This document shows, piece by piece, positions 23,931 through 24,963 of a stretch of 64,000 nt of DNA. How positions within the stretch are numbered: position 1 is the first letter of the stretch; each line of letters opens with the position of its first letter. This DNA is from Escherichia phage SholemSchwarzbard. Under the pieces are notes generated by a model. That model worked only from the letters and a program-made list of their open reading frames with translations. It was not told the origin of the DNA and ran no database searches. The stretch lies in sequence record PP925840.1; one strand, given 5' to 3'. The translations under genes and the position numbers were made by a program.

Positions 23931-24080
23931 TCAATTGATGCATTCATATTTAAATTGTAACAGTAATAAACCCCACCCTATGATAAGAGTTGGAATCATA
24001 GCAGGAACTGTTACGCTATAGTATATACTTATTATAACCATCAAGATTAAAAGCAACACTGTTATAATTTTGCTTTTCAT
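23931..24080 (-). CDS. small hydrophobic membrane protein, 49 aa
   Basis: hand-translated MKSKIITVLLLILMVIISIYY...; ATGA overlap with imm. Confidence 0.5.
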   Translation of the reverse strand: MKSKIITVLLLILMVIISIYYSVTVPAMIPTLIIGWGLLLLQFKYECIN

Positions 24081-24328
24081 TCCTTCTCTCTGATGATAAT
24101 TACCTGATTTGGCTGTGCAGACTTTTTAGTTTCACCCGCAATTGACCAAATAAATGTAATAAACCAACCAATAATTGACCAGTTAAACAGTAAAGATGTG
24201 AAAAAGATTCCTACTGTCGATTTTGACCCACGCATCAAGGCGATAAACCATGGAAGCATGTATATAATAATAGCCAACACACCTGAAACTAAAACCATAA
24301 AAATTGAACCTGCTACTAAAGTTTCCAT
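24077..24328 (-). CDS. imm: Imm superinfection immunity membrane protein, 83 aa
   Basis: two transmembrane segments; size and position as in T4. Confidence 0.8.
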   Translation of the reverse strand: METLVAGSIFMVLVSGVLAIIIYMLPWFIALMRGSKSTVGIFFTSLLFNWSIIGWFITFIWSIAGETKKSAQPNQVIIIREKE

Positions 24329-24335
24329 GTTTTCC

Positions 24336-24716
24336 TCACTTAGTCAAATTTTTTACACATGAATTATAAGAATTCACTACATACTCCATCGGAGCATTTT
24401 TACCAGTACGCCATTGGTAATTATTAGCCCAATTAGCCCAAATTTCGGCGCAGTAGTTTTCAATTTTTTCTTCGCGTGTAATTACATCCGAATTACGATA
24501 TGCTTGAGCAGATTCATCTGGACGAATAGCTTCGTCAAAATTTGCCTGCATTTGTTCTACTGTCTGTTTTGGAGCTTCTTTATAACACTTGACATTAGGA
24601 TTATAAAATTTGCTTGAACAGTTTACAATTTTTCCTACATCAGACTGATTTACTACCGGTCCTTGAGCTACACAACCAGTAAGACCTAATGCAATAACCA
24701 AAATAGCGATTTTCAT
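24336..24716 (-). CDS. putative lipoprotein, 126 aa
   Basis: signal peptide with lipobox LTGC. Confidence 0.7.
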   Translation of the reverse strand: MKIAILVIALGLTGCVAQGPVVNQSDVGKIVNCSSKFYNPNVKCYKEAPKQTVEQMQANFDEAIRPDESAQAYRNSDVITREEKIENYCAEIWANWANNYQWRTGKNAPMEYVVNSYNSCVKNLTK

Positions 24717-24726
24717 AATAATTTCC

Positions 24727-24963
24727 TCAAATGCAAGTAGTAATTACTCCAGTAGTGCTTATGCAGGTATTACCCATTTGCACACCTAAAGATCCATTTG
24801 TATTCACATGAAGATTATCATCAATTTTAACTGATATTTTACCATTAGTGTGAATAACGGTGCTAGATTCAATCACAGGTTGAGTATCATTTTCAACACT
24901 AACAAATGGAACTGCTGCTAATGCAACTAAACAAACTGCTAAGCATCCCATAACAATTTTCAT
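24727..24963 (-). CDS. small secreted protein, about 79 aa
   Basis: signal peptide; ATG at 24963 with GGAG SD (track start 24975). Confidence 0.6.
   Translation of the reverse strand: MKIVMGCLAVCLVALAAVPFVSVENDTQPVIESSTVIHTNGKISVKIDDNLHVNTNGSLGVQMGNTCISTTGVITTCI

Follow-up and report, generated by a model that had tools for sequence, protein, structure and literature searches.

The imm locus of T-even phages raises the question of whether the superinfection immunity protein Imm works alone or whether the small genes next to it also contribute to the exclusion of competing phages. The locus was analysed in Escherichia phage SholemSchwarzbard (sequence record PP925840.1), in a stretch of 64,000 nucleotides (nt; the window, to which all positions refer) where a sequence-only reading had placed a row of four small envelope-targeted genes, imm among them, between gene 42 and gene 43. 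The analyses revealed four open reading frames (ORFs) in a row at this site, all on the minus strand: orf78 (24963-24727; 78 amino acids, aa), imm.1 (24716-24336; 126 aa), imm (24328-24077; 83 aa) and orf49 (24080-23931; 49 aa). The names given to gene 42, Imm and gene 43 were likewise upheld by profile matches and by the annotation of relatives and T4. The four ORFs are more than chance reading frames, as indicated by profile matches, start signals, conservation and selection. They match phrog_4189 (orf78; E 4e-30), PF17578 (imm.1), PF14373 (imm) and phrog_3610 (orf49; E 2e-26), the two phrogs being of unknown function. Each ORF has a Shine-Dalgarno sequence (GGAG 9-12 nt 5' of the ATG of orf78, GAGGA upstream of both imm.1 and imm) or, for orf49, an ATG that overlaps the preceding imm stop codon (ATGA), and all four are intact and in frame across hundreds of phage records. 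The ratio of nonsynonymous to synonymous polymorphism (pN/pS), estimated from a small sample of 5-8 distinct Tequatrovirus sequences per gene, was below 1 for each of them: 0.04 for imm.1, 0.06 for imm, 0.37 for orf49 and 0.44 for orf78, with 0.06 for gene 42.

Comparison of the segment 23900-25150 with sequenced phages returned 515 matching records of 80-99% identity, nearly all of them Tequatrovirus, the closest being Escherichia phage Ec_O157kw (99.4% identical). The window can be assigned to Tequatrovirus, being about 99% identical to sequenced phages. The gene past gene 42 is annotated in the best match as a beta-glucosyl-HMC-alpha-glucosyltransferase of the T2/T6 type, which makes this a T2/T6-type phage and distinguishes it from T4. 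The locus as such is already known: it is the imm locus of a T2/T6-type Tequatrovirus, and both imm and imm.1 are annotated genes of T4. The T4 imm/imm.1 locus (T4p045 and T4p046, between genes 42 and 43) holds the same genes in the same order, with Imm about 99% and Imm.1 about 98% identical and with the same promoter, terminator and ribosome-binding sites, whereas the present phage differs in its additional orf78, in the lipobox LTGC where T4 has LAGC, and in the T2/T6-type glucosyltransferase. The neighbours of imm had been called uncharacterised, which holds for their function and fails as a claim of novelty, since imm.1 is named in T4 and orf49 and orf78 are annotated as hypothetical proteins across many Tequatrovirus genomes. 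What is new here is the constraint on imm.1, the linkage of a lipoprotein gene to imm in seven genera, the conservation of orf49 and the lineage restriction of orf78.

Imm is the product of a classical T4 exclusion gene, and imm is classically non-essential. The protein encoded here matched the full 42-position model of PF14373 (Imm_superinfect; 58.2 bits, cut-off 27.9) and phrog_1039 ("immunity to superinfection"; E 4e-32), was 98.8-100% identical to Imm of T4 and T2, and has a long hydrophobic N-terminal stretch followed by a second hydrophobic half, according to the simple sequence rules on which all signal-peptide and topology assignments in this work are based. Two residues, R33 and W50, are invariant in an alignment of Imm from seven genera. 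In T4, the substitutions W50A and R33A weaken exclusion, Imm co-purifies with and binds the tape measure protein gp29, and plasmid-borne Imm by itself excludes T4 (bioRxiv 10.64898/2026.03.06.709160). The binding of gp29 backs the earlier statement that Imm blocks the entry of superinfecting DNA (bioRxiv 10.64898/2026.03.06.709160): according to that work on T4, Imm sits in the inner membrane and binds gp29 of the superinfecting phage, so that a DNA conduit fails to form. Among the four proteins of the locus, a demonstrated function exists for Imm only. Other exclusion proteins of the inner membrane, such as gp15 of HK97, work against the tape measure protein by the same logic; these stand alone, unlike Imm with its adjoining lipoprotein gene. 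As a side observation, two unrelated siphovirus-like contigs from IMG/VR (L040, 3001-5945; L044, 3001-5942) encode a distant Imm_superinfect homologue directly 5' of a tape measure gene, whose product of 851-862 aa contains the lambda tape-measure C-terminal domain PF09718 (E about 1e-9), a neighbourhood that fits the reported interaction between Imm and the tape measure protein.

The gene preceding imm encodes a predicted lipoprotein. Imm.1 matched PF17578 (DUF5481) over the entire model (positions 1-103 of 103; 237.6 bits, cut-off 27) and was 97.6-98.4% identical to Imm.1 of T4. The lipobox LTGC noted in the sequence-only reading is located at residues 12-15 of the 126-aa ORF; the signal MKIAILVIALGLTG, with Lys at residue 2, precedes the lipobox Cys15, which is followed by Val at position +2, and the whole fits a PROSITE PS51257-type pattern. 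The predicted mature protein has about 111 aa and contains Cys33, Cys44, Cys89 and Cys120. Position +2 is occupied by Val in Imm.1 and by G, A, S, Q or V in its homologues, and no lipobox-bearing member has Asp there; by the +2 rule of Lol sorting, Imm.1 is predicted to be lipidated and sorted to the outer membrane. An AF2 model built from an 18-sequence alignment (pLDDT 67) was confident only for residues 81-125, which form a helical hairpin (helices 81-104 and 110-125) with the invariant Cys89 and Cys120 on opposite helices, an arrangement that fits a disulfide-stabilised periplasmic domain. The sole sequence match of Imm.1 to a solved structure was the signal region of the FlgH lipoprotein, with a non-significant E of 0.05. 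An o-spanin identity was also considered for Imm.1 and was ruled out by its early expression, the lack of a neighbouring i-spanin gene and the location of the T4 spanin genes elsewhere.

No functional study of imm.1 was found, and full-text searches for the gene yielded a single mention in a genomic paper and a single screen table. Regarding its annotation, the RefSeq record NC_000866 names Imm.1 (T4p046) "iduronate sulfatase" and gp42 (T4p044) "thymidylate synthase"; the former name was unsupported by any search made here and has spread to other RefSeq phage records. Several records call Imm.1 or orf49 an "immunity protein" through proximity alone.

The constraint on imm.1 is strong. Its purifying selection is as strong as that on imm (the pN/pS values given above), and the protein is at least 95% identical across about 500 Tequatrovirus records, T4 included. 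In the CRISPRi-ART screen of T4, imm.1 scored "Not Fit" (-0.77), imm (T4 positions 26373-26624) "Fit" (1.40; p 0.02) and gene 42 "Fit" (PMC11879866 supplement). In the laboratory, a phage growing by itself can thus dispense with imm.1, which would be expected of a gene whose value lies in competition with other phages.

A lipoprotein with these features could also be of the receptor-masking kind, like Llp of T5 and Cor of phi80, and inactivate the phage's own outer-membrane receptor from the periplasmic side; a predicted outer-membrane lipoprotein that is made early by a lytic phage would suit these precedents, which are listed in PMC9586334. A blocker specific to one receptor should vary with the receptor, whereas Imm.1 shows the near-identity just described and the T2 locus is essentially identical. 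The receptors of T2, T4 and T6 are not the same (OmpC, FadL/OmpF, Tsx). The near-invariance of Imm.1 among phages with different receptors therefore argues against masking of the Llp or Cor type, and, together with the lack of sequence or fold similarity to either protein, makes this explanation very improbable.

The imm loci of other T4-like genera and 80 IMG/VR loci were then compared, covering seven T4-like genera or groups. Each imm locus on T4-like contigs (about 160-172 kb) had a lipobox lipoprotein gene directly adjoining imm. The lipoprotein gene is located upstream of imm in Tequatrovirus (126 aa), Mosigvirus (122 aa), Gelderlandvirus (148 aa), a Klebsiella group (147 aa) and Muldoonvirus (148 aa), and downstream of it in Gaprivervirus (167 aa) and Dhakavirus (166 aa). 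Lipobox ORFs are scarce in the window, where both strands together hold only three (imm.1, spackle and a 90-aa ORF). Distant Imm_superinfect homologues were also present on around 50 contigs that are not T4-like; most of these had no lipobox ORF nearby, and the few lipobox-like ORFs found there bore no obvious relation to the Imm.1 family. In Mosigvirus (Escherichia phage moha; contig L003, 2495-3530), the interval between genes 41 and 61 holds imm.1, imm and spackle in direct succession, beside dmd, and the Imm.1 homologue is 33% identical with the same LTGC lipobox. An Imm.1 homologue is thus encoded by RB69-type phages, in contrast with the published listing of Imm.1 as a marker of the T4 group that was thought missing from the RB69 group (PMC5885020). 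The row imm.1-imm-spackle in RB69-type phages is a small exclusion island.

Further searches addressed the extent of the lipoprotein family. An exhaustive search of 1.84 billion representative proteins returned six clusters at 50% identity, and a word-indexed protein search with Imm.1 alone returned three, showing that the Imm.1 family is genuinely small. The short and long lipoproteins of the different genera appear to form one extended family, judging from several similarities. They share the motif C..QG.VV.A.EVGK just past the lipid-bearing Cys, and Y38, C89 and C120 (Imm.1 numbering) are invariant across all of them. With the signal peptides removed, as their inclusion inflated the result, hhalign aligned the short with the long lipoproteins at 90.9% probability (E 1e-6) over 29 residues only. 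A 175-aa member on contig L092 bridges the two forms, matching the hidden Markov model (HMM) of the short family with E 6e-5 and that of the long family with E 6e-16, and Foldseek weakly linked the Imm.1 model to a Citrobacter phage lipoprotein (E 0.013).

The linkage bears on a second explanation, in which the row is made up of unrelated accessory genes that happen to reside in the variable stretch past gene 43 and have nothing in common but the need to be expressed early and exported. Functionally, Imm.1 and the other neighbours would be independent of Imm and would be employed elsewhere in the envelope, for example in timing lysis, in resisting lysis from without or in countering host systems that act on the envelope. 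In favour of this explanation, the content of the interval between genes 43 and 42 differs from genus to genus, PM2 has the lipoprotein gene with no imm found nearby (see below), the orf49 homologue lies apart from imm in Mosigvirus, T4 has no orf78, and plasmid-borne Imm excludes T4 by itself. These differences also bear on the idea of a cluster of four, which stands as a row and fails as an indivisible unit, with only the lipoprotein travelling with imm. On the other hand, the lipoprotein gene accompanies imm to its different position in Mosigvirus, beside spackle, a second proven exclusion gene; the adjacency is kept whether the lipoprotein gene lies upstream or downstream of imm; and lipobox genes are as rare as noted above. 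Unrelated accessory genes may nevertheless account for part of the data and keep a substantial, though minority, share of the probability.

Several observations weigh against a partnership of Imm.1 and Imm in exclusion. In Pectobacterium phage PM2 and in contig L092, gene 43 is followed by a long lipoprotein gene, an arabinose-5-phosphate isomerase gene and an orf49 homologue, and in PM2 no match to Imm was found within 12-32 kb, the 20 kb searched covering both usual imm sites; an imm gene at its side is therefore no prerequisite for the lipoprotein. Past gene 43, all these phages vary in gene content, and the linkage may partly reflect shared residence there. Plasmid-borne Imm excludes T4 by itself, as cited above, and Imm.1 is therefore not required for Imm activity. 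The lipobox Cys is present in 17 of the 18 aligned members of the Imm.1 family, the remaining one (P0004) having instead a signal of the signal-peptidase-I type. No characterised protein resembling Imm.1 or the other cluster proteins was found with Foldseek in PDB and BFVD or with HMMs run against PDB sequences, the best Foldseek match in PDB having E 2.5 with query models of low confidence. Scans of the cluster with NCBIfam, PADLOC and Rfam returned nothing meaningful, and Pfam and PHROG returned only the proteins' own families. Finally, a tie to exclusion would be hypothetical for orf49 and orf78, and for Imm.1 it is inferred from the gene neighbourhood only.

Spackle, the product of gene 61.3 and the second exclusion protein of T4, acts in the periplasm, where it inhibits the tail lysozyme gp5 (PMC7677548). 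Spackle is small, early, exported and helical and has a disulfide, features also predicted for Imm.1; it takes part in exclusion and, in Mosigvirus, directly follows imm.1-imm. Its homologue in the window (18750-18457, minus strand, 97 aa) is 5.6 kb from the imm cluster, and neither sequence nor fold similarity was found between Spackle and Imm.1, orf78 or orf49. Also comparable are Llp of T5, Cor of phi80 and N15, and Ltp of Streptococcus phage TP-J34, phage-encoded lipoproteins that stop the entry of a second phage. Ltp is reported to target the tape measure protein, as has now been shown for Imm. Searches of Pfam, PHROG, Foldseek and PDB sequences detected no homology between any of the three and Imm.1; moreover, Llp and Cor are receptor-specific blockers, whereas Imm.1 is nearly invariant among phages that use different receptors and its exclusion role is putative.

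Two side observations concern the lipobox pattern itself. The signal peptide of the Spackle homologue contains LASC, by which it was caught as a lipobox ORF; Spackle is known as a soluble periplasmic protein. The third lipobox ORF of the window (4617-4345, minus strand) encodes 90 aa, or 86 aa from its second ATG, with the signal MKYINRSIAALVLAVSLAG before the Cys, and it had no Pfam match.

The reading chosen for Imm.1, given somewhat under an even chance, is that of a periplasmic lipoprotein anchored in the outer membrane, which would act together with Imm or form a second layer of exclusion. This reading is based on the position of the gene next to imm on either side, in the Mosigvirus locus too, where spackle lies alongside, on the combination of strong purifying selection with dispensability in single-phage growth, and on the near-invariance among phages with different receptors. 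Imm.1 would be lipidated at Cys15 and sorted by Lol to the periplasmic face of the outer membrane, in keeping with the lack of Asp at +2, and its C-terminal helical hairpin would be locked by the Cys89-Cys120 pair. Its target would be a conserved component of the tail tip or the tape measure of the incoming phage, or Imm itself, and not a host receptor. A more specific version, which is held only tentatively and is rather doubtful, regards Imm and its associated lipoprotein as a two-part exclusion device of the seven enterobacterial T4-like genera sampled, with the lipoprotein as the periplasmic half. In such a device, the lipoprotein would intercept the incoming tape measure protein or tail tip before Imm does so at the inner membrane, and the 49-aa peptide would be a further membrane component; the arrangement would resemble that of Ltp in Gram-positive hosts, in a new family of about six sequence clusters.

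The transcription signals of the locus were analysed on the same strand. Gene 43 (DNA polymerase; 27841-25145, minus strand, 898 aa) and gene 42 (dCMP hydroxymethylase; 23923-23183, minus strand, 246 aa), both identified from the annotation of near-identical phages and T4, flank the four ORFs. Directly past the stop codon of gene 43, a terminator scan and folding revealed a predicted intrinsic terminator (25132-25115, minus strand; AGGGACC-TCCG-GGTCCCT followed by TTTTT; -13.9 kcal/mol) that is conserved in T4. About 90 nt beyond it and upstream of orf78, the first ORF, is a predicted T-even early promoter (25027-24998, minus strand), with GTTTAC at 25027-25022, a spacer of 18 nt, TACTAT at 25003-24998, TG just before the -10 element and an A/T-rich element on its 5' side that reaches to about 25045. 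The site thus agrees with T-even early promoters in GTTTAC at -35, the extended -10 element TGnTAnnAT, the A/T-rich upstream element and the early-gene strand. The block GTTTAC...TGGTACTATACAACTATCAAC, which we take to be the T-even early promoter consensus from T4 biology, recurs at no fewer than five further places on the minus strand of the window, and T4 has it unchanged. The scan revealed no convincing terminator between 24990 and 23923, only a weak 5-bp hairpin inside orf78. In accordance with the single early promoter of the sequence-only reading, one early promoter for the whole row is reasonable, and read-through into gene 42 is likely. Host RNA polymerase would start at this promoter, just beyond the gene 43 terminator, and the transcript would cover orf78, imm.1, imm and orf49 and then probably gene 42.

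The explanation favoured for the locus as a whole, with a modest lean towards it, is that of an early operon-like cluster that would place four small envelope proteins within minutes of infection. A possible middle promoter was considered separately: inside orf49, the minus strand reads TGCTTT-N13-TATAAT at 24055-24031, which is similar to a MotA-dependent middle promoter, could serve gene 42 and is conserved in T4. A loose MotA-like pattern had 11 matches on the minus strand of the window against 9 on the plus strand, no commoner on the coding strand, and the candidate was set aside since it may be due to chance.

The product of orf49 was correctly foreseen as a hydrophobic peptide: two hydrophobic helices were assigned to it, giving a predicted membrane hairpin of the form MKSK-TM1-SVTVP-TM2-KYECIN (TM, transmembrane segment) with Lys at both ends. 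Homologues of 45-49 aa and 50-57% identity were found in Gaprivervirus, Dhakavirus, Mosigvirus, Mosugukvirus, Pectobacterium phage PM2 and other contigs, sharing the motif P.MIPT..[GAS]W...Q.K[YF][EN]C[FI][NW], and each of them begins on the stop codon of the preceding gene. The ORF is intact in T4, with 8 amino acids different, and is unannotated in both NC_000866 and AF158101. The overlap with the imm stop codon would suit an obligate partner of Imm, and this candidate role was ruled out: in Mosigvirus, the orf49 homologue stays downstream of gene 43, after the arabinose-5-phosphate isomerase gene and apart from imm, and in PM2 it follows the same sugar isomerase gene with no Imm found in the 20 kb searched. 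Since the Mosigvirus homologue is at gene 43 and imm is elsewhere, orf49 is not tied to imm. It is best seen as an independent, conserved, putative inner-membrane peptide whose native place is the locus that follows gene 43.

The position of orf49 suggests how it would affect its surroundings. It would be translationally coupled to whichever gene precedes it, and in this phage, where its TGA stop codon falls within the Shine-Dalgarno sequence of gene 42, it would chain the translation of imm into the start of an essential gene. The "Fit" score of imm in the CRISPRi-ART screen may be explained by such a polar or translational coupling through orf49 into gene 42. The same features would be expected if orf49 were not a functional protein at all and were kept as a coupling or promoter-preserving frame for gene 42, with orf78 possibly a decaying remnant. 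Start and stop overlaps, the MotA-box-like sequence inside orf49, the possible polar origin of the imm score, the faster evolution of both genes (based on few sequences) and the viability of T4 without orf78 would all agree with this. Its probability is nonetheless judged to be low, since orf49 keeps its length and motif (50-57% identity) in genera with different flanking genes, orf78 stays in frame through 21-bp indels with a good ribosome-binding site in 325 records, and the MotA-like pattern is equally common on the non-coding strand.

For orf78, the first gene of the row, the start in the program-made ORF list was a TTG at 24975, and the ATG at 24963 gives 78 aa plus a stop codon, or 79 codons; the earlier description as a secreted 79-aa protein thus counted the stop codon, and secretion is one of two fitting options. 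With Lys at residue 2, an uncharged run of 21 residues (I3-V23) and a possible ALA-A cleavage site at residues 14-16, the N-terminus may be a signal peptide, and a signal anchor in the membrane fits equally well, as the uncharged run reaches up to 28 residues in variants that carry duplications. The C-terminal part of about 55 aa is beta-rich and ends in ...C..........CI; the AF2 model, with an N-terminal helix and six short strands, is unreliable (pLDDT 55). In-frame duplications of 7 aa (21 bp; CLVALAA) were observed in the hydrophobic N-terminus (24963-24895) among the homologues P0024, P0030, P0031 and L013, and some of these variants gain a lipobox-like LAAC site, one of them being named "Lipoprotein" in UniRef.

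The distribution of orf78 was also restricted. It occurred in 325 phage records, all Tequatrovirus-like, against about 500 records with Imm.1 at 95% identity or more, and was missing from about a third of Tequatrovirus records. Alignment of 24716-24975 with T4 revealed that, in T4, the ribosome-binding site of orf78 (GGAGAATGAA, GGAG) is joined straight to the ATG of imm.1. The starts of orf78 and imm.1 both carry the 8-bp repeat ATGAAAAT, which suggests that T4 lost orf78 by a precise recombinational deletion between the two copies. As predicted from these features, orf78 is a fast-evolving, dispensable, Tequatrovirus-specific accessory protein that probably faces the periplasm.

The locus itself is textbook T4 biology, and the finding as first stated adds little to it. 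Its remaining interest lies in a testable hypothesis of exclusion by Imm.1 and in a conserved small gene that the T4 reference annotation lacks: orf49, a 49-aa membrane-protein gene between imm and gene 42, which is to be weighed when reading the phenotypes of imm knock-downs or insertions. The reported tape measure target of Imm makes the constrained lipoprotein that adjoins imm the next candidate for a part in the exclusion of competitors by T-even phages.

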